Assembly: GCA_041178085.1 (NCBI GenBank)
Contig: JBEGVZ010000003.1
Location: 1-25,473, forward strand
DNA length: 25,473 nucleotides
Direction: 5' to 3'
Origin: Pseudomonadota bacterium
GTDB lineage: Bacteria; Bdellovibrionota_B; Oligoflexia; Oligoflexales; RGVZ01
Positions 3,004 to 23,863 of the stretch are shown piece after piece. Numbering within the stretch: position 1 is the stretch's first letter; every line of letters begins with the position of its first letter. The position numbers and the translations under genes were made by a program. The notes below the pieces were generated by a model. That model was given only the letters and a program-made list of their open reading frames with translations. It made no database searches and was not told where the DNA came from.

Positions 3004-4161
3004 ATGTCACGATTGCCAGAGCCTTTTTTTGAAACACCAGCCATCACCCCGGAACAGTTTCTGGCCGAGCTCCCGCGCTGGATTCTGTTGGATGTGCGCT
3101 CACCCGCCGAGTTTGGTGAAGGGCACCTGCCAGGAGCCTGGAATTGTCCTGTTCTTGAAGACCTTGAGAGGCATCAGGTTGGATTGAAGTACAAACAAGA
3201 GGGCCAACAGGCGGCAATTGACCTCGGTGTCGAATTGGTCTGGTCCGCGCGTGAGGGACGCGCTAACGAGTGGTTGCGTCGCGCGCTTTCCGGGGTAACT
3301 GGTGAGCGGCGCATCCTGGTTTCCTGCTGGCGCGGGGGCCTGAGGTCGCTCCTGGCCGCGTCATGGGTTGCTGAAGTTCTCAAAAACAACCCAGACAGGT
3401 ATGGCCAGGTCAGTGTTTCTCGCCTTGCTGGTGGCTACAAGGCTGTCCGTGGCAAGTTGCTGGAAGCGATTTCAGCACCCAGGGACATGGTCGTCCTCTC
3501 CGGCATGACTGGATCCGGAAAAACAGCCCTTCTTCACGATTTGATCGCACTGTCCGGGTTCGACTCCCGGCGGGTGATTGATTTGGAGCGTCTGGCCCGC
3601 CACCGTGGAAGTTCTTTTGGCCACGCGGTGTCGGAAGCCGGTGAGCGCATTGAACAACCATCCCAACAATTTTTCGAAAACCAGCTCGGCCTTCAAGTTT
3701 TGCAAGGCGCATCCGGGCCGCTTGTGGTGGAAGATGAAAGCACGTTGATCGGCAAGATCTCCATCCCGCTAGAATTTCGCAGGCAGATGCGGGCGGCGCC
3801 CGTGGTGGTTGTGGAGACCCCCATTGACCTGCGTGCGCGGGCGATCTTCCGGGAATATGTCAGCCAGCCTCTTGAGCAAGGCTGCGAAGTCGAGTCACTG
3901 TGGCAGGTGCTTGCGGAAAATATCTCGGCTCTTGAGCGACGCCTTGGGGGGCAGGACACACGCGAAGCGCTACTGGCTCTTGCCAGTGGCAAGGCGTGTC
4001 CGCGTGAATTTGCTGCGCAGGATCCATGGATCCGGACTCTGCTGGAGAAATATTACGACCGTGCCTATGCCCAGTCTGGCCGGCTTGCAGAACGGAATGT
4101 GATTTTTCGCGGTGACTTGGTAGCTTGTCGCAATTTCTTGAAGGATTACGGGGGTGAGTGA
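3004..4161 (+). CDS. mnmH: tRNA 2-selenouridine(34) synthase
   Basis: Rhodanese domain DVRSPAEF..GHLPGA, CWRGGLRS, GGYK; P-loop GMTGSGKT; DLERLARHRGSSFG; EDES; YYD. Adjacent to selD. Confidence 0.96.
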   Translation: MSRLPEPFFETPAITPEQFLAELPRWILLDVRSPAEFGEGHLPGAWNCPVLEDLERHQVGLKYKQEGQQAAIDLGVELVWSAREGRANEWLRRALSGVTGERRILVSCWRGGLRSLLAASWVAEVLKNNPDRYGQVSVSRLAGGYKAVRGKLLEAISAPRDMVVLSGMTGSGKTALLHDLIALSGFDSRRVIDLERLARHRGSSFGHAVSEAGERIEQPSQQFFENQLGLQVLQGASGPLVVEDESTLIGKISIPLEFRRQMRAAPVVVVETPIDLRARAIFREYVSQPLEQGCEVESLWQVLAENISALERRLGGQDTREALLALASGKACPREFAAQDPWIRTLLEKYYDRAYAQSGRLAERNVIFRGDLVACRNFLKDYGGE

Positions 4162-5255
4162 TGGCGGTCCAGGGTGACACTCAGCAGGAACCGGTGAAGT
4201 TAACCCAAACCGTTCAGAAGGGGGGGTGCGCGGCAAAACTGCCGGCCGGGGAGCTGCGTGCAGTGCTCGCAGGCCTTGAGCAAAAGCGACCACCCGAACT
4301 TTTGGTCGGCCATGACACCATGGATGACGCCTGCTTGTGGGACTTGAAGGATGGCAGGGTTTTGGTCCAGACGTTGGATTTCTTCACGCCGATCGTCGAC
4401 GACCCGTTCGACTTTGGGGCAATCGCCGCAGCCAACTCGATCAGCGATGTTTATGCCATGGGCGGCACTCCGGTCACGGCGATGACCATTCTTGCCTTCC
4501 CGGGTGCCCGTTTGCCACTGGATCTAATTCGTCCCCTGATGGACGGGGCTTTATCGGTCCTGAACCGCGCCGGCGTCGCGCTTGCTGGGGGGCATACGAT
4601 TGACGATGAAACCCTGAAGATGGGTTTTTCAGTATCGGGCTTTGTAAACAAGGATAAAACCTGGACCAACGCGGGAGCCAAGGCTGGAGATGTCCTCATC
4701 CTGACCAAGCCTCTCGGTACCGGGACTATCACCGCTGCCTTGAAGAAAGGGGAGGCGAAGCCCGACTGGGTGAAGGGGGCGATCGACAGCATGGTGCGGA
4801 TCAATGATCTGCCTAAAGTTTTGGCAGAGTTTGCTGTCCATGCCGCCACGGACATCACGGGCTTTGGTTTTGCCGGCCACGCGATGCAAATGGCTTGTGC
4901 CAGTGGCTGCAGTTTTTTGATCAATCCCGATTCTTTGCCTACACTTGAAGGTACAGCAGATTGTTTAAAGGCCGGGTTTTTGACCCGGGCGCATACGACC
5001 AACGGCAGTTATACCGGAAGTGGTGTTGGCTGGGAGCTGGATGGAGAAGCCGCCCAGCGCTGGCCGGATGTGATGCGCAAGCTCGTGGTGGATCCACAGA
5101 CGTCAGGTGGGCTGCTCCTGGCTATAGCACCGGACCATGCCGAAGCTGCGCTAAGTGCCATTCGCAGAGCTGGATTTGACCGTGCTGTTGTTGTTGGTGA
5201 AGTGGTGCCTGCGATGGGCATGACGCCCGGCAAGTATCTCGTTTTCCGCCGGTAG
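4161..5255 (+). CDS. selD: Selenide, water dikinase (selenophosphate synthetase), Cys-type
   Basis: GGCAAK, DDA, QTLDFFTPIVDDP, AANSISDVYAMGG, GGHT, LTKPLGTG, TDITGFG, DPQTSGGLL. TGATG coupling with the mnmH stop. Confidence 0.97.
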   Translation: MAVQGDTQQEPVKLTQTVQKGGCAAKLPAGELRAVLAGLEQKRPPELLVGHDTMDDACLWDLKDGRVLVQTLDFFTPIVDDPFDFGAIAAANSISDVYAMGGTPVTAMTILAFPGARLPLDLIRPLMDGALSVLNRAGVALAGGHTIDDETLKMGFSVSGFVNKDKTWTNAGAKAGDVLILTKPLGTGTITAALKKGEAKPDWVKGAIDSMVRINDLPKVLAEFAVHAATDITGFGFAGHAMQMACASGCSFLINPDSLPTLEGTADCLKAGFLTRAHTTNGSYTGSGVGWELDGEAAQRWPDVMRKLVVDPQTSGGLLLAIAPDHAEAALSAIRRAGFDRAVVVGEVVPAMGMTPGKYLVFRR

Positions 5256-5298
5256 GTTTTCAAAAAGCCTCCGGTTGTTTCTCTGGAGGCGTTGTGCG

Positions 5299-6063
5299 AT
5301 GGCAAGAGTTTGTCCTCTGGCAGAGCGTGGTCTGGGCCGCGGCGCGATGAAGGCGCAGTTCGGCCTTTCCCATACGCTTTGCTCCACCCAAAGTGCGGCT
5401 GGTTTTAACGGGCAGCCAGTTGCCGGGTGGCTCGTTGGCATGAATGGCCAGCACTGGGGCGAGGACTTTCGTCTGTGCGTCGGCTCTCTGGTGATTGGCT
5501 CTGGGTATCAGTCAAACCTTTGTGTCACATACCCGGGTGTTTCCGGTCGTCACGCTGAAATTATTGTCGACGTGGCCGGTTCCAGTATCAGGGACCTTGG
5601 CAGTCGGGACGGGACTTTCGTGAACGGTCATCAAGTCACGACGGCTCAGATCCTGGACGGAGACGAGATCGCCTTTGGCCCCGCCCGGTTTATCTTCAGG
5701 ACCGCAACAAAATTCGATCCCGGTTACAAGCCAGTTCTGCGGCCGCGGCCGGCGTCTCCTGTTTTCCGGAATGAAAACCGGAAGCGTCTTTGCGAGGGCT
5801 GGATTGTCGGTCAATACGGGCCCTATGCAGGGCAAGACTTTCGCTTGCTGACGGGTGACAATTTTTTTGGTGCGGCGCCAGGACTTGAGGTTTCCCTGGT
5901 CGATGCAAAACTTTCTCCGCGTGCCGGCCATCTGGCAATGGGCAACGGTGGTTGCGTTCTGGTGTTCGGTAGCGGTGCCAATCCCGTCCGCAGGGTTTTG
6001 CAGGATTCTGATGAAGTACAAATCGGCAGTCACAATTTTTATGTGAAGATTTTCCATGGTTGA
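5299..6063 (+). CDS. Cytoplasmic tandem FHA-domain protein (second FHA degenerate)
   Basis: Two repeats of GW(L/I)VG..G...G.DFRL followed by FHA-like sequence (VIGS...VSGRHA...RDLGSRDGTFVNG...DGDEIAFG). GGAGG SD 9 nt before ATG 5299. Confidence 0.8.
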   Translation: MARVCPLAERGLGRGAMKAQFGLSHTLCSTQSAAGFNGQPVAGWLVGMNGQHWGEDFRLCVGSLVIGSGYQSNLCVTYPGVSGRHAEIIVDVAGSSIRDLGSRDGTFVNGHQVTTAQILDGDEIAFGPARFIFRTATKFDPGYKPVLRPRPASPVFRNENRKRLCEGWIVGQYGPYAGQDFRLLTGDNFFGAAPGLEVSLVDAKLSPRAGHLAMGNGGCVLVFGSGANPVRRVLQDSDEVQIGSHNFYVKIFHG

Positions 6064-7666
6064 ACGGGCCCCTATCATTGCTTCCTGGGTTGCTGTCGTT
6101 GCCGTTGCGCTGGCGGGCCATCCTGCTTCTGCAGCCAGCAAACTTGTGCGCATCCGTGCCGTTGAGCCAACGGATGATTTCAAGTTGATTGTCTTCAGTC
6201 GTGTTCATGAGGAAGAAAATAAAATCCTGTTTCCGGTGACAACCCTTGATCGTGAGGCATTCACGCTCACGCTGGGTAAAAGTGATCCGGCAAGGCTCAA
6301 GCCGGATTCACTGTCCACGTTCAGCACCCTTGCCCAGCCGCGGGTCCGACGCCTGGTTGTCACGTTGCCTGTTGCGGCTAACGTACCCCGGGCAACTCTG
6401 GATGATATCCGCCAGACCCTTGCGGAAAATCTACCGCTGACGCGGAGCGAATTTTTTTCCGTGCTTTCGGTCACATCCAGCGGTGAACTGGAAGTGGCGG
6501 GCACTTCACCGGGTGAATCCGACAACGTCCGGGCGCTGCAGAAAAAGATCCTGGACGCCCCGCCTGCCGGGGAGAACACCGGAATTCATCAAGCGGTGTG
6601 CGCTGCTGCAAAAAAATTTGCATCGTGGGCGCCTTACGCTTCACGCCCCGGTGAACAACGGGCAGCCATCCTGATTGGGAATCCATCAGTCGAATCTAAG
6701 GATGGTTTGAAACGCCTTTCCGCCTGCCTCGATCAGCTCAAGGTCGCAGAGGTTGCCGTCTACTTGTTGCGTGCGGACTCGATCCCGCCGCTGCCAGTGG
6801 GTGCCGAGCAAGTGTTTCAAGACGGTGCACGGCTTGGTGGCGGGTTCGTCCAGCGCATCAGTTCACGGGTAGATCTTTATCCCGCGCTCAGCAACGTATT
6901 GGGAAACCTTAATGAGGAATACGTAGCTACTTTTGACCTTTTTTCACTGATTGGCACTTGGGAAGGTCGGAATGCGATCGCACAGGACGGGGTTTCTTAC
7001 CTGGATCTGGGGGTTTCATATCACGGTCAGGATGTTTCGTCTGGCATGTCTTCTGTGCCTCTCCCTGCGACCTGGCGTGACAACATTGAACGCATAAACA
7101 AGGCCGGCACATCGCGGGAAAAAGCGATCCGGTTGTTCACAGACCTCAATCCCCCCGAGAGGATCGTTGCAGGCGTTCTAGCTGTAATCCTGTTGGTTAC
7201 ACTGTTTTTTATTTTGCGTTACTGGTTCCTTTCGATCCGCCTGGCAATGCGCTCTGTTCGATGCCGCACCTGTGGCCTTCGGGTTAAAAGGAGTTTCAGT
7301 AACTGTCCATATCGTGACAACAGCTTCGCTGGCTGGTTGTCTATCCTCAACGGGCCGGACGTGGGGATGGTATTGCCTGTCATGGAAGGCCGGAATTTGC
7401 TTGGAACATCGGATGCTTGCAACATCCACGCAGGAAAGGGCTATCGAATCCGCAGGAAACATGCCGAACTCCTCCTCGACGGGGGAAAGGCGCAGTTGAA
7501 GTTGTTGCGCGGCGGAATCCTGCGGCACGGCGATCAGATCAACGGGTTTGAAATCAGAGAACCACGACTGCTGTGTCACGGTGACGTAGTCAAGCTCGGC
7601 AAGGCGTTCATGCGGTTTGAGCTTCGTGTTGCGGAACAATCCGCGACGGTTTCCCAGGAGGCTTGA
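6056..7666 (+). CDS. Signal peptide - VWA-like domain - TM - Cys-rich knuckle - FHA protein
   Basis: Signal peptide (VAVVAVALAGHPASA). VWA-type segments RRLVVTL, GENTGIHQAV, RAAILIG, VAVYLL, ARLGGGFV, LNEEYVATF. TM IVAGVLAVILLVTLFFIL, then CRTC...NCPY and a C-terminal FHA (GWLSILNG...RKHAEL...HGDVVKLG). Confidence 0.75.
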   Translation: MVERAPIIASWVAVVAVALAGHPASAASKLVRIRAVEPTDDFKLIVFSRVHEEENKILFPVTTLDREAFTLTLGKSDPARLKPDSLSTFSTLAQPRVRRLVVTLPVAANVPRATLDDIRQTLAENLPLTRSEFFSVLSVTSSGELEVAGTSPGESDNVRALQKKILDAPPAGENTGIHQAVCAAAKKFASWAPYASRPGEQRAAILIGNPSVESKDGLKRLSACLDQLKVAEVAVYLLRADSIPPLPVGAEQVFQDGARLGGGFVQRISSRVDLYPALSNVLGNLNEEYVATFDLFSLIGTWEGRNAIAQDGVSYLDLGVSYHGQDVSSGMSSVPLPATWRDNIERINKAGTSREKAIRLFTDLNPPERIVAGVLAVILLVTLFFILRYWFLSIRLAMRSVRCRTCGLRVKRSFSNCPYRDNSFAGWLSILNGPDVGMVLPVMEGRNLLGTSDACNIHAGKGYRIRRKHAELLLDGGKAQLKLLRGGILRHGDQINGFEIREPRLLCHGDVVKLGKAFMRFELRVAEQSATVSQEA

Positions 7667-7669
7667 GGA

Positions 7670-8950
7670 TTGTCAGACCGGCTTACCATTCGTTTTCTAT
7701 CAGGGCCTTTAAGCGGGCAGATGTTCTCCATTGGCCTCGGGGACCTTTTCTTTGTCGGGTCTGACCCCGCGTGCAATGCTGTGATCGCTGGTGATCCCTC
7801 CGTTCATGCCAAGCATGTTTGCATATACTATCGCGCGCCTGGCAAGGTTCTGATCAAGGATCTGGGCAGTGCAAACGGTAGCCGGATCAATGGCAAGCAG
7901 CTTGGCAAGACCTCCAAGTTGCGTGACGGGGACCGCATTACAGTTGGAACCAGTGCAACTTTCCAGTTCACGGTATGGGACCCGATGCAGCCCACGCGGA
8001 TGACCGGGATGCTCAGGCGCAGGTTGTCTTCCATGAGCCGCCTTGCGCGGCGTCGTGTTGCCCCTAACCCTGGTGCAATTCCTGTATTTGGTGACTTAGG
8101 GGACGTCAGCTGGCGACCGGGAAACCGGGTCAAGACGGCAGTGGTCGGTGTTATGGCCGGGTCAGCATTGGCTCTCATGTTGTTCGCCGGGGTCAGGCTT
8201 TACGAGCGCAATGCGAGAAACCTGCCGGCGGGCCTGCCAGGGGTTGAGTTGCGGGCGCTTACTCCTGGGGGAAGCCGCGAGAATCCTTCCACACGTTCAT
8301 CTGTTTCGCTGCCAAAGCTTGAAGTCGATCGCGATTTCATTTGGGACGAGATCGTGAATATTTCTGTCCGTTTTGGAGAGACTCCACCGTCCGTCATGGA
8401 TGTCGACTTCATCAACAAGGTGCAGTACTGGATCAACCGGTTCACGGTCCGGGGGTACCACCGCGAACTTTTGCGGCGCCGCCAGCAGTACATTCCGGCG
8501 ATCGAGTCAGCGTTGAAGGAGCAGAACCTTCCGCTGGAACTTGGCTATCTGGTCTGGATCGAGTCGGCCTACGAGATCGACGCATTGTCGTCTGCAGGGG
8601 CGAAAGGGTTATGGCAGCTTATGCCTGCGACGGCCAGGGAATACGGACTGCGCGTTGATCAGGGGCGACGTATTGATGAGCGGGTTGACCCTCTGAAGAG
8701 CTCCCGTGCAGCGGCTTCTTATTTGAACCTGCTTTTGAAGATGTTCGGTGGACAGCGTTACTTGCTCGCCATTGCGTCGTACAACACGGGGCAAAACCGG
8801 GTGCAGCGATTCCAGATTGCTACGACCATCCGGCAATCGCGTGCGGCAGACTTCTGGCATCTAGTGGACCAGTTGCCTGCGGAGACGGTCGATTACGTGC
8901 CCAAGTTCCTGGCGGCTGTGATCGTTGCGCGAAATCCGGGGCGTTTTTAG
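7670..8950 (+). CDS. FHA - TM - MltD-like lytic transglycosylase (SLT/GH23)
   Basis: N-terminal FHA (KDLGSANGSRING...LRDGDRITVG), TM (AVVGVMAGSALALMLFAG), SLT motifs WIESAY (catalytic Glu, 8561-8563), SSAGAKGLWQLMPATA, ASYNTG, ETVDYVPK. TTG start with AGGAGG SD 8 nt upstream. Confidence 0.9.
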   Translation: MSDRLTIRFLSGPLSGQMFSIGLGDLFFVGSDPACNAVIAGDPSVHAKHVCIYYRAPGKVLIKDLGSANGSRINGKQLGKTSKLRDGDRITVGTSATFQFTVWDPMQPTRMTGMLRRRLSSMSRLARRRVAPNPGAIPVFGDLGDVSWRPGNRVKTAVVGVMAGSALALMLFAGVRLYERNARNLPAGLPGVELRALTPGGSRENPSTRSSVSLPKLEVDRDFIWDEIVNISVRFGETPPSVMDVDFINKVQYWINRFTVRGYHRELLRRRQQYIPAIESALKEQNLPLELGYLVWIESAYEIDALSSAGAKGLWQLMPATAREYGLRVDQGRRIDERVDPLKSSRAAASYLNLLLKMFGGQRYLLAIASYNTGQNRVQRFQIATTIRQSRAADFWHLVDQLPAETVDYVPKFLAAVIVARNPGRF

Positions 8951-11014: not shown

Positions 11015-11566
11015 ATGGCATTGACTCCGTCCAACATGCTTCCCTTGGGTACCCGTGCTCCGGCCTTCTCCTTGCCGTCCACCGAGGGGACTATGGTTTC
11101 ACTGGAGGATTTCAAGGCAGCGCCCGCCCTCCTGGTGATGTTCATTTGCAACCACTGTCCCTATGTGAAGCACATACGCCAGGGTCTTGCTGAGCTGGGC
11201 CGCGATGTTGCTGCAAGGGGAGTGGCGGTGGTCGGGATCAACTCCAACGACGTGGCGAAATACCCCGATGATCGCCCTGAATTGATGAAGATCGAGAAGG
11301 CTGGCTCAGGGTGGACGTTCCCCTATCTTTACGACGAGACCCAGGCGGTTGCCCGTGCCTACGATGCCGCCTGCACACCCGATTTCTACTTGTTCGATGC
11401 GCAGCGCAAACTCGTTTATCGCGGCCAGATGGATGACAGCCGTCCCGGCAACGGAAAACCAGTCACCGGAGCCGATCTGCGTGCTGCAGTTGAGGCGGTT
11501 ATGGCTGGCCAGGCGCCGTCAAGTGACCAAAAGCCTTCGATTGGTTGCAACATCAAGTGGAAGTAA
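11015..11566 (+). CDS. AhpC/TSA thioredoxin-family protein (Prx-like1)
   Basis: MALTPSNMLPLG.AP.F.LP, FICNHCPYV, NSND, YLYDETQ, ACTPDF, YRGQMDDSRPGN, SIGCNIKWK. Confidence 0.92.
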   Translation: MALTPSNMLPLGTRAPAFSLPSTEGTMVSLEDFKAAPALLVMFICNHCPYVKHIRQGLAELGRDVAARGVAVVGINSNDVAKYPDDRPELMKIEKAGSGWTFPYLYDETQAVARAYDAACTPDFYLFDAQRKLVYRGQMDDSRPGNGKPVTGADLRAAVEAVMAGQAPSSDQKPSIGCNIKWK

Positions 11567-12203
11567 GTTTTTCCCAGTAGGTTTTGAGTTCCGGCGTGCT
11601 GCCTGCAATGGCCGCGGCTTCCTTGATGGAATCGCTATGGCCGATCTTGAAGATCGAGTAGAGCGCTCGTTTTTGGACCATCACAGGGACACCTGACCGG
11701 AGGTTCCGGCGATCGCGTAGCGTCGCCAACAGCTTCCGCGAAGCTGGTGCGTCCATCGAGCCCTCCATTGCCGTGCCGATTGCCCCAGCGGCCTCTGCGC
11801 GAACCACCAGAGCCTTGTCTTGCAGGCCGTTCTCGAGGATTTTGCTGCAGAATTCCGGGCGGCCCCCGGATGGTGCGGCACATATCCGTACCCAGCCAAG
11901 GCGCCATTTCCAGTCCCAGGATGCCAGGGTGTTGCCGCGGTGTGCGTTGCTGTACCACAGGGCTTCGATTTCTTTGGTTGGCATCTCCATAAATCGCCGC
12001 CATTCACTGGCGTTCGGGGCACTTCCCGGGTCGAACGATGGTTTTTCGAAGGCTTCGTGGCTGTTCGTGGCCAAGTTGTCCTGGGCTGCCGGTACGGCAC
12101 CATGCGCCGTAACGGATGCAATGGCACAGCTGAGTAAAAATGCCTGGGTTGGCCAGCAGCGGCGGCGTTGGTCTTGCCGGCGCATCAGGGAGGTGAATTT
12201 CAT
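11553..12203 (-). CDS. Exported protein with HEAT/armadillo-like repeats
   Basis: Basic N-region plus hydrophobic stretch (AFLLSCAIASVTAHG); HEAT-like GLQDKALVVRAEAAGAIG and VQKRALYSIFKIG. Start uncertain. Confidence 0.6.
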   Translation of the reverse strand: MKFTSLMRRQDQRRRCWPTQAFLLSCAIASVTAHGAVPAAQDNLATNSHEAFEKPSFDPGSAPNASEWRRFMEMPTKEIEALWYSNAHRGNTLASWDWKWRLGWVRICAAPSGGRPEFCSKILENGLQDKALVVRAEAAGAIGTAMEGSMDAPASRKLLATLRDRRNLRSGVPVMVQKRALYSIFKIGHSDSIKEAAAIAGSTPELKTYWEKLTST

Positions 12204-13063: not shown

Positions 13064-14254
13064 ATGGTAAAAAAGAAGCAGAACCTGCCCACGTGGCGAA
13101 ACTGCAAGACGGTTGCGGAAGCATGCCATTTGGTAGACGTCGGTATCCTGTTGTCGTGGAAAGATGGTCGCCAGATGACGACTATCTTGAACGGGCAGGA
13201 GCAGGCTGATGTCGTTAAGCACATGATCGTCCGCCTGTGCGAGCGGGGCGACATTCGGTTATCCCAGGAAATCATTGTCGAATCGTTGCTGATCTGGCTG
13301 GCGAACGCTCAGAGCGAATCGATGATCGTAACGGTCCTAGAGGAACTGTTCGCCAACCCCCAGGCGGCAAGGGCCTGTGAGAACATCCTTCAGGTTGTCT
13401 TCTCTGCTGAATACGCCGACAAGAACCACGCCATCGAGATTTACAACCTTAGCGTGGTTCTGGTTTGCGAGCTTGGTTTTGCCATCCGCGCGTTTGACCA
13501 GCAATTCCCGGGCGAATTGCGTAACGCACGACAGTTGCTTGACCGGGTCGCAACTTATTTGCTCAGTGCAAGCAATTCCAGCAGTGACGCAGTCCGTTTC
13601 AGCCTGATCCACTATTTTGGTGAAACCGAACAAGGCATCCCCGATAAACCTTTTTTCAACCGGGTGATGAGTCGTTTCGGCCACACGGTCCTGGATCAGT
13701 TGTTCAGTCTTCTGTTCAAGAAGAAAGTAGAGTCAGTGGCCCTGCAGTTCTTGCTGGAGAACATGCCATTCATCCTCGAGGCCGATCATCACACCCAAGT
13801 GATGGTCCATGAGTCGATGAAGTTTTACGCGCTCAAGCACCCGGATCGCTTCGGGCTGTTTTTGAACGCGCTGGCCAACCGCGTTGCCGCCCTGCCGGCT
13901 GGCGAATACAAGATGGCGAGGCGTGCTCTGCTGATGCAGTATTCCGCGCTTTACCGGGTCCTCTCAGAGGTCAATGCCCGTGAACTCGGACGCGATGTGG
14001 CGGTTGGCATGTGTACTTTGCGCCAGGACGATAGCTTTCAGGGCATCATTCAGGAGTTGTCGAGGGACCGTACCCTGCGTCTGCAGTTCCATGAAATGCT
14101 GCAGAAGATAGTCCAGTCAGCGCAGGCCAACGTAAACCCGGCCGATGTGGTGGTACTCAAAAGCGTCAAGCGCGGTCGCAAGCCGACGCTGGCCAAGGCT
14201 GGTGAACTTGGAACGGTGACCCAGGTGTCTTTTCTGGCCCAGGCGGCCGGGTGA
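13064..14254 (+). CDS. Hypothetical all-alpha cytoplasmic protein
   Basis: 396-aa ORF with AGGGG SD and amphipathic helical character. No family recognised; C-terminal KRGRKP motif. Confidence 0.75.
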   Translation: MVKKKQNLPTWRNCKTVAEACHLVDVGILLSWKDGRQMTTILNGQEQADVVKHMIVRLCERGDIRLSQEIIVESLLIWLANAQSESMIVTVLEELFANPQAARACENILQVVFSAEYADKNHAIEIYNLSVVLVCELGFAIRAFDQQFPGELRNARQLLDRVATYLLSASNSSSDAVRFSLIHYFGETEQGIPDKPFFNRVMSRFGHTVLDQLFSLLFKKKVESVALQFLLENMPFILEADHHTQVMVHESMKFYALKHPDRFGLFLNALANRVAALPAGEYKMARRALLMQYSALYRVLSEVNARELGRDVAVGMCTLRQDDSFQGIIQELSRDRTLRLQFHEMLQKIVQSAQANVNPADVVVLKSVKRGRKPTLAKAGELGTVTQVSFLAQAAG

Positions 14255-14292
14255 CCGCCCTGTGGCAACGTCGAAAGGTTATGCGAACACGA

Positions 14293-14904
14293 TCACTCGA
14301 CCGGAGTCGGCTCAGGTCCTATGACGCCGGGCGTGGCTTCGATCTTGTTTTCCGCAGAAACTGGAAAATCAATTGTGGTCTTCTTGCCGATCACGTCGCG
14401 CAGGAACCAAGCACCCTTTTCACGCACAACACTCACGGTGTTGTCTGTCGTCACGGTCGCCGCAGTATCCTTCGCGATCTCGGCACCTGCAGATCCGAGG
14501 TCGGCATAAACAAGGCGGAATGTGATCTCGGTCTCGCGAGGAGTCCGGTCACGGCGTTCGATGACAGAATAGCTTTTAACTTCATAACGGCGGTCAATGT
14601 ACGCAGCTTTGATGTCTTCGTCCCTTGCCGAGTTGATTGCCTGGCGCAGTTTGCCGGTGGTCAGTCCAGCAAGGCGTTCGCGTTCAGATGTCTCGCGCAT
14701 GTTAAACGCTGTATTCAGATAGGTCTCCACGACTTGCTCCGGGCTCATGTCCTTGTGTTTCAGTCCGCAGAAGCGTGCACACCCCGTCAAGGCCAGGCAA
14801 AGAAACGCCAGGCGGAGGACTGATTTGAACTGGTTACCCCGGGTCCGGCTTGAACCAGTGAGTCCCAAGGTCATGAATGTCTGAGTCATGGCAGCCTTCA
14901 ACAT
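14293..14904 (-). CDS. Hypothetical lipoprotein (possible NTF2/Tim44-like fold)
   Basis: GGAAGG SD; lipobox LALTGC; SPEQVVETYL helix and terminal VVREKGAWFLRDV strand pair typical of NTF2-like lipoprotein domains. Confidence 0.65.
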   Translation of the reverse strand: MLKAAMTQTFMTLGLTGSSRTRGNQFKSVLRLAFLCLALTGCARFCGLKHKDMSPEQVVETYLNTAFNMRETSERERLAGLTTGKLRQAINSARDEDIKAAYIDRRYEVKSYSVIERRDRTPRETEITFRLVYADLGSAGAEIAKDTAATVTTDNTVSVVREKGAWFLRDVIGKKTTIDFPVSAENKIEATPGVIGPEPTPVE

Positions 14905-23217: not shown

Positions 23218-23344
23218 CAGCAATCCTCCGGTCAGGCAGCTTTTTTTTCAGGTACACGATCCTAACATATCTGACAGTGAAATGAATCCGCGGTTCGTGT
23301 TAAAATCGGAAGGTCCGGGTCCATACGCCAGCAGGGAGCAGGCC

Positions 23345-23863
23345 ATGAGAATCTTGGGAAGTTGGCAGTCAAAAGCAGCATTCGTTTCCTTTTCATCGCT
23401 GGCATCCCTGACCTTCGCAGGGCACGCGTCGGCGCGCAGCGTGTTTCTCAATGGTGTCGATGTTTCCAGCTCCCGCAGTCAGGAGCTCCGGAACGTTCAG
23501 ATTCGCATTAATGAGAAGGGCGACATATTTATTTCGGCCCCCCATTACCAGGTGACCGAAGAGGATTTTTTCACGCCGCTTAGCCGTGTCCCCGCAGCCG
23601 GCACCGCGGCTGTTTCCCCGGTCGCTGGCGGTCCAAGCGCCCTTCCGGGAGCCCCGATTACGGCCAGTGCTCCGGCGGCAGTGGCGGCGCGGCCTCAGTC
23701 ACCGGCGGCTGAGGTTCCTGCGGTAGCCCCGCCAGCCGCCGCAGCAGCACCTGCGGCTCCGGCCAAGGGCGACAAGCCTGATTCTTTTTCCAACATCGGG
23801 TTGCAGAAGAGTCCTCCTGAGTCCATGCCCCCGGTGCTGCCCGCAACACCTCCAGCGAAATGA
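23345..23863 (+). CDS. Hypothetical exported protein with small beta-rich N-domain and Pro/Ala-rich tail
   Basis: GGGAG SD before ATG 23345; signal peptide ending HASA; SVFLNGVDV...VQIRINEKGDIFISAPHY; low-complexity PA tail; ATGA overlap with yggS. An extended -10 (TGTTAAAAT, 23298-23306) supports the later start. Confidence 0.7.
   Translation: MRILGSWQSKAAFVSFSSLASLTFAGHASARSVFLNGVDVSSSRSQELRNVQIRINEKGDIFISAPHYQVTEEDFFTPLSRVPAAGTAAVSPVAGGPSALPGAPITASAPAAVAARPQSPAAEVPAVAPPAAAAAPAAPAKGDKPDSFSNIGLQKSPPESMPPVLPATPPAK

Follow-up and report, generated by a model that had tools for sequence, protein, structure and literature searches.

To our knowledge, how tails of the extracellular contractile injection system (eCIS) type anchor at the membrane and cross the wall inside cells is open for most systems. 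Streptomyces and Anabaena are named as cases of cell-kept tails in the available text of PMC12923769, which gives Pvc16_N and CIS_tube as eCIS markers and places the fibre genes after Tail_P2_I; FHA, VWA or SLT accessory genes are not mentioned in that portion of the article. A precedent for recruited wall hydrolases comes from type VI secretion (the T6SS), with TagX and MltE, and with the FHA protein Fha/TagH accompanied by PpkA/PppA (PMC13584744, available portion). Here, we describe three adjacent genes (A, B and C, together the trio) in a 25,473-nt stretch of DNA, the window, from contig JBEGVZ010000003.1 of an uncultured member of the Oligoflexales (assembly GCA_041178085.1; 3.0 Mb, 96% complete, with the window contig as C3). 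The conserved three-gene unit is likely a trans-inner-membrane wall-remodelling module in which FHA folds serve as scaffolds. Our leading but tentative reading, to which we give somewhat less than even credence, is that the trio is the membrane-docking and wall-opening accessory of a contractile injection system (CIS), kept after the injector was lost and now serving an unlinked contact structure.

The trio resembles the T6SS accessories in that an injector is associated with an FHA protein and with a wall hydrolase held in a membrane; in one genome (G104, described below) a kinase and a phosphatase lie nearby, as with PpkA/PppA. It differs in that the FHA domain and the transglycosylase are fused in one inner-membrane protein, in the added VWA membrane protein, in the missing phosphothreonine Arg and in the absence of a VipB match from every genome with the trio. 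The genes and their parts are as follows.

5285..5289, + strand: Shine-Dalgarno-like GGAGG ahead of the gene A ATG (sequence; homologs begin at the same place)
5299-6063, + strand: gene A, 254 amino acids (aa), predicted soluble, start ATG; the same frame runs open from position 5275 (TTG)
Start of A (gene 5299..6063), + strand: N-terminal CP..H remnant
About 5428-5703, + strand: FHA fold 1 of A; GS/GA replaces GR in both A folds
About 5791-6048, + strand: degenerate FHA fold 2 of A, after a linker
6056-7666, + strand: gene B, 536 aa, predicted N-out single-pass inner-membrane protein
6056..6133, + strand: predicted signal peptide of B, ending A-S-A (hydropathy; helix with low predicted local distance difference test score, pLDDT)
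6134..7060, + strand: beta-sandwich of B with an inserted VWA fold, VWA core at about 6347-6916 (Pfam match of a homolog, model)
7160..7216, + strand: predicted transmembrane helix of B, aa 369-387 (hydropathy, model, charges)
7262..7309, + strand: knuckle of B, CxxC-x10-CP, a zinc ribbon that keeps three of the four Cys seen in distant relatives
7325..7624, + strand: FHA fold of B, predicted cytoplasmic, without the Arg, Ser and Asn loop (Pfam, alignment, model)
7656..7661, + strand: AGGAGG, 8 nt ahead of the gene C TTG (sequence)
7670-8950, + strand: gene C, 426 aa, start TTG, predicted N-in single-pass inner-membrane lytic transglycosylase
7679..7969, + strand: FHA fold of C, predicted cytoplasmic, GS replacing GR (Pfam, match to a solved structure)
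8138..8194, + strand: predicted transmembrane helix of C, aa 157-175 (hydropathy, charges)
8327..8944, + strand: SLT domain of C, predicted periplasmic, with the family-specific lead-in FIWDEI..IS.RFG..PP and no LysM
8561-8563, + strand: codon of Glu298 of C, the predicted catalytic site (alignment)

A and B overlap by 8 nt and 3 nt separate B from C. The preliminary description of the locus had proposed three linked open reading frames (ORFs) with this overlap, this gap and the AGGAGG, and all are confirmed in the sequence. It had also placed an FHA domain in each protein, and Pfam agrees, with 54.3 bits for A, 21.7 for B and 52.6 for C against a cut-off of 20.7. In the window protein A only the first fold is scored; the second is scored by Pfam in two homologs, as two stretches, and is supported by profile alignment. 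Hydropathy gave neither a membrane helix nor a leader for A, in keeping with the soluble tandem-FHA protein proposed earlier. B has one strong hydrophobic helix besides its leader. With 8 Lys or Arg and no Asp or Glu after that helix, B is predicted to be N-out, and with 10 Lys or Arg ahead of its own helix, C is predicted to be N-in, the orientations that had been suggested for both. These flanking charges would therefore place all four FHA folds in the cytoplasm, and the VWA and SLT parts in the periplasm.

The VWA fold of B is unscored by Pfam in the window protein but scored in a homolog (PF00092, 33.1 bits, cut-off 23.8). An AlphaFold2 model built from 18 sequences (mean pLDDT 85.4, predicted template modelling score 0.60) matches the A1 and A3 domains of von Willebrand factor, integrin I domains, the pilus adhesins SpaC and PitA, and FHA domains, and the Atlas assigns VWA to B both by features and by structure. 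The metal-ion-dependent adhesion site of VWA domains reads DxSxS..T..D. No DxSxS is present in the window protein, which has L104-P-V-A-A and G208-N at the metal-site positions. Within the VWA part, Cys182 and Cys224 are present in every one of the 30 homologs, and a disulfide in the exported domain is likely on the alignment. Thus the exported VWA, the helix and the FHA domain of the anatomy described earlier for B hold up, while the Cys knuckle has only three Cys and the VWA lacks DxSxS. In the second B paralog of genus g54 (L083, L085, L086, L091 and others; 9 of 30 rows) the knuckle is gone altogether.

The SLT domain of C scores 82.5 bits, and E298, S299, G313, Q316, Y371, N372 and G374 are invariant in 30 of 30 aligned homologs. 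No LysM was found in C by the Pfam scan. The MltD-like domain with an intact catalytic Glu and without LysM, as first described, is therefore what these data give. C shares with MltD (family 1D lytic transglycosylase, NF008050) the motifs ES, G(L)WQ and A(S)YNxG, and the best solved match to its catalytic domain is 8rhe (E 7e-30). It differs from MltD in scoring 111.8 bits against a cut-off of 508, in having no LysM repeats and in carrying an N-terminal FHA domain and a membrane helix instead of a lipoprotein signal. One homolog of gene C bears the name Silvanigrellaceae. Attack on the prey wall, one of the roles raised in the preliminary description, was considered for C and rejected as the best reading: a predicted anchor in the inner membrane of the producing cell makes such a role unlikely.

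We assessed the phosphothreonine site of the FHA folds by alignment to GarA and Ki-67. The canonical site consists of an Arg (GR), a Ser (SxxH) and an Asn (NG). The Arg of the GR motif is lacking in all four folds of the window proteins; among aligned homologs, none of 30 has it in A fold 1, none of 30 in A fold 2 and none of 30 in C. The full Arg-Ser-Asn triad is found in none of 30 proteins for A fold 1 or for C. Non-phospho FHA folds act as bridges in secretion rings, and all three trio proteins match PF16697, the family that covers the FHA folds of SctD/CdsD of the type III secretion system (T3SS). The best solved FHA match to C, 3gqs, belongs to that group and likewise has GS for GR. The trio differs from SctD by lacking its periplasmic ring domains and by its low whole-protein scores (TIGR02500, 13.9-16.6 bits against 86), and no T3SS genes were seen in the trio neighbourhoods that we read. 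ArnA and ArnB of Sulfolobus are cytoplasmic, whereas the VWA part of B is predicted to be exported. The likeness to that pair is of an FHA protein paired with a vWA protein (PMC6509490, available text), and the likeness to the Kil (Tad) system of Myxococcus is of FHA-rich genes in a predator (PMC12428579, available text); no Tad genes lie beside the trio.

We searched 131 genomes of the class, all of them incomplete assemblies. The B profile matched 33, of which two hits were FHA-GGDEF proteins (G048, G101) and were dropped, leaving 31 genomes. Besides the window genome these are 15 of the 21 further members of its family, 1 of 12 genomes in family f13 and 14 of 33 in family f19. A 62-residue motif specific to C was found in 32 genomes, the same 31 and one that is 66% complete. 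The preliminary description had made its module depend on co-occurrence in other genomes, and B and C do occur together in 31 of the 32 genomes that hold either. Two copies of the trio are present in 12 of the 13 genomes of genus g54, and one paralog in G117 is split into two pieces. The closest named relatives of B are 53-58% identical and include one from an Oligoflexales metagenome-assembled genome. Among viral contigs, 31 pattern matches were obtained and none was confirmed.

We read 37 loci, namely that of the window, 15 others from its family, 19 of the 25 g54 places, G104 and G068. The order A-B-C holds in 33; three others run off their contigs and are consistent with it in the part that remains, and G104 is the one variant. 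The genes are spaced by -40 to +20 nt, save at one locus with a 3.2-kb insert ahead of C. One copy has two genes inserted between B and C (L084:6051-8554), one encoding a subtilase and the other a 266-aa protein that fits no known family. Four settings are seen, in genus g1, in genus g3 and around each of the two g54 paralogs; their neighbouring genes are not the same, which indicates that the unit moves as a cassette. Nei-Gojobori ratios of nonsynonymous to synonymous substitution (dN/dS) ranged from 0.022 to 0.214 over 24 computable values from 9 pairs, those with dS >1 being rough; two more were saturated. Judged from these ratios, the trio is under purifying selection. The possibility of a decaying relic was considered and is rejected by dN/dS and the intact frames. 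The conserved linkage and dN/dS indicate that the arrangement is more than chance. The f13 genome (G068:C90, L053) is the sole member of its family with A, B and the C motif; the genes lie on short contigs with visibly GC-rich codons, a copy for which transfer and binning error are indistinguishable.

The preliminary description had proposed a trans-inner-membrane wall-remodelling module. The conserved unit and the topology make this likely, but the family's link to a contractile injection system was missed. A profile search of 1.8 billion representatives returned 23 proteins at E 1e-30 or better, plus weaker hits with the whole architecture of B. B aligns over 442 columns (probability 99.6) with a member of a VWA-transmembrane-zinc ribbon-FHA family. 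This outer family has 33 full or near-full members, one named Deltaproteobacteria, and the Atlas clusters that match it are mostly from Myxococcota. Its motifs are more complete than those of B, with a four-Cys ribbon and the SDG of VWA. FHA-SLT fusions also occur in Myxococcota and Acidobacteriota clusters.

A scan of soil metagenomes confirmed 99 places with the outer family, of which 80 were kept. Across these loci the order is fixed as kinase, gp25, Baseplate_J, PASTA/Tail_P2_I, a 509-aa gene, zinc-FHA and VWA-FHA, and Baseplate_J and Tail_P2_I are present in 27 of the 27 loci with at least 3 kb upstream. Further along the same operon lie a phage tail gene (phrog_52, VgrG-like by our own reading) and, in four loci, Pvc16. 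The best match of the zinc-FHA protein in the window genome is gene A (E 4e-17), the succession of an A-like and a B-like gene matches zinc-FHA and VWA-FHA, and the phosphothreonine Arg is likewise missing in 21 of 21 zinc-FHA relatives. By profile match and gene order, A and B are homologous to the zinc-FHA and VWA-FHA accessory genes of CIS of the Tail_P2_I type. In this operon (L128:1202-20983 and 79 related loci) PASTA is fused to Tail_P2_I, the 509-aa gene has no Pfam or PHROG match, and the VgrG-like protein is extended by >1000 residues of helical repeats.

G104 is the only one of the 131 genomes with this CIS subtype. On one contig (G104:C126, L102) it carries FHA, kinase, FHA, B and C on one strand and, back to back on the opposite strand, genes for a PPC protein, Pvc16_N, a kinase and PP2C. 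A second contig (G104:C29, L219) holds two sheaths, two tubes, a tail chaperone, CIS_tube/LysM, gp25, Baseplate_J, PASTA/Tail_P2_I and the 509-aa gene. The last of these is 30% identical over its length to the metagenome gene (E 5e-79), and by this homology the two CIS are of the same subtype. No spike gene was recognised in the G104 CIS, whose last two genes match no Pfam, PHROG or VgrG-like profile. A 396-aa gene after PP2C was considered as a VgrG remnant and rejected, since it matched nothing, and a match of the CIS_tube/LysM protein on C118 was discarded because it runs through LysM only.

We searched the genomes with the trio for an injector. The sheath C-terminal domain (PF17482) occurs in 18 of the 131 genomes, but among the 32 with B or C only in G104; several trio genomes without a sheath are 94-98% complete. 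Pvc16_N exceeded its cut-off in G104 only, gp25 was found in G104 only of five genomes tested, and the 509-aa gene was found in none of the 131 besides G104, whose own sequence was in the query. VipB (PF05943) occurs in 14 of the 131 genomes, none with the trio, an exclusion that follows genus lines and is not a statistic: within family f19, genera g52 and g55 have VipB whereas genera g53 and g54 have the trio, with no genome carrying both. No TssJLM genes were seen in the 37 loci, although no search was aimed at them. The window genome shows no match for a sheath, a baseplate (gp25, Baseplate_J, Tail_P2_I), Pvc16 or a VgrG-like protein, so that the trio stands alone in it, unlike in an eCIS, and the CIS proteins of G104 and of the metagenome loci have no match there save one.

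That match is a lone gene resembling the T4 gp19/CIS tube (G000:C43:71916-72404, - strand; L217:11917-12405; PF06841, 32.7 bits, over the cut-off). It has a hydrophobic N-terminal leader and lies just upstream of a lipoprotein-like gene (about 520-570 aa), in housekeeping surroundings. It is present in 90 of the 95 genomes of the order and in none of the 36 others of the class; because it is spread over the order, it does not track the trio. It is possibly a domesticated, exported tail-tube protein.

The trees bear on the direction of evolution. In a quick B tree rooted at the midpoint, 32 trio-type rows stand apart from 8 outer-family rows (Shimodaira-Hasegawa-like approximate likelihood-ratio test, SH-aLRT, 100). 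A careful tree of the SLT part of C, from which two proteins lacking the anchor motif were skipped, unites 24 trio-type rows in one clade (99/99). The fuller motifs of the outer family and its CIS linkage favour descent from a CIS, although the trees are no proof and on these sequences the direction is not established. Several observations weigh against our leading reading. G104 is left unplaced in the quick B tree, where long branches were flagged, and in the C tree it is not basal but nested, sister to one g54 paralog group (96/93); being nested, it would demand several losses of the tail or a re-association in G104. With 67-84% identity to the query, the 80 metagenome loci are close relatives and not independent cases. 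None of them has a transglycosylase or SLT gene, so that the link of C to a CIS comes from G104 only, and there the trio locus and the CIS locus are on different contigs. Five family members that are 85-94% complete show neither B nor C. In genomes without the trio the flanking marker genes were likewise not found when we looked for empty sites, and loss and assembly gap are therefore indistinguishable. Finally, the phospho-site reads Lys-Ser-Asn in 9 of 30 C proteins, which form one paralog group, and 11 of 30 B homologs have Arg at the site but lack the Asn loop; some members may thus read phosphothreonine.

The same data can be read in other ways. The trio could remodel the wall in shape, growth or division as a free-standing module with no injector origin, from which CIS loci recruited copies. 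CIS markers are lacking in 30 of the 31 B-bearing genomes, the neighbours are housekeeping genes, selection is strong, the two paralogs of g54 are stable, and the nested position of G104 agrees. We nevertheless regard this as unlikely, though deserving serious weight, given that the range is patchy (the trio was not found in 99 of the 131 genomes), that the nearest outgroup family of B was CIS-linked in every informative locus, and that the more complete motifs of that family fit the trio being the derived form. A Ser/Thr phospho-relay in which kinases switch the transglycosylase on through FHA domains would make sense of the kinases and PP2C that lie next to B and C in G104, of the kinase at the head of the metagenome operon, of the four kinase-like and two PP2C-like genes elsewhere in the window genome, and of the GR that the wider FHA-SLT proteins retain. 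Against it, the Arg is missing throughout A, C and the zinc-FHA relatives, and no kinase or phosphatase adjoins the trio in the other 36 loci, so that a relay is quite improbable.

Myxococcus gliding uses a VWA adhesin and a transglycosylase, and the trio might be an accessory of a Glt-type gliding machine, with an adhesin-like VWA part and a wall-cutting enzyme. The window genome does have a Glt-like locus (G000:C67, L216:319-9200) encoding an outer-membrane barrel, TPR proteins and an FHA/TonB_C protein. We consider a gliding role very doubtful: no linkage to glt genes appears in the 37 loci, a GltG-like gene is present in five of the five family members where the trio was not found, and the predicted place of B is the inner membrane and not the surface. 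It is very improbable, too, that a tail-like machine is still there, too diverged or unassembled to detect and perhaps using the lone tube gene on C43. The incomplete assemblies and the gp19-like match over the Pfam cut-off would allow it; the distribution of that gene is unrelated to the range of the trio, the 31 trio genomes other than G104 have no sheath, and the window genome has no baseplate or VgrG-like match.

Under the CIS-accessory reading that we prefer, A would link the FHA folds that B and C have in the cytoplasm, with no need for phosphorylation. The metal-free VWA part of B would form a docking platform in the periplasm, beside which C would cut glycan strands and so make an opening in the wall of its own cell at a selected place. 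In CIS-bearing cells the trio would keep the tail docked to the membrane and make way for it, much as TagX, MltE and Fha do in T6SS. In genomes without a CIS the module may serve an unlinked envelope structure for cell contact, which is the weakest step and a guess. A bolder version, speculative and on balance improbable, is that zinc-FHA, VWA-FHA and the FHA-transglycosylase form the anchor and wall-piercing complex of an undescribed cell-anchored contractile injector in myxobacteria-like bacteria, T6SS-like without TssJLM, which Oligoflexia domesticated as a stand-alone wall-opener after loss of the tail.

The trio would resemble the wall-opening accessories of injection machines in action and is no member of T6SS, T3SS, MltD or an intact eCIS. 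It corresponds to no named system, as the preliminary description had also said, and in the literature searched we found neither the trio nor the occurrence of its genes in a CIS locus described; supplementary eCIS locus lists (e.g., PMC12923769), which lay outside the search, may hold them.

Directly upstream of the trio in the window lies the pair selU (MnmH) and selD (3004-5255), which stays beside it in genus g1 only, and a convergent DUF1275 gene follows C. GC content is unremarkable. Window ORFs without a Pfam match lie at 777-2156, 11553-12203, 13064-14254, 14251-14823 and 23282-23863; in one relative, homologs of the ORFs at 11553 and 13064 lie close to the trio.

The hosts of the trio are uncultured freshwater-type bacteria, kin of predators, and as a compact three-gene unit it can be expressed and tested outside them. 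The trio names concrete candidate genes for the membrane anchor and the wall-opening enzyme of one CIS subtype. The retention of the same genes under selection in about 30 genomes without injector markers would amount to a domestication of secretion accessories. Should the module instead be free-standing, it would still be an undescribed system built on an FHA-fused inner-membrane transglycosylase.

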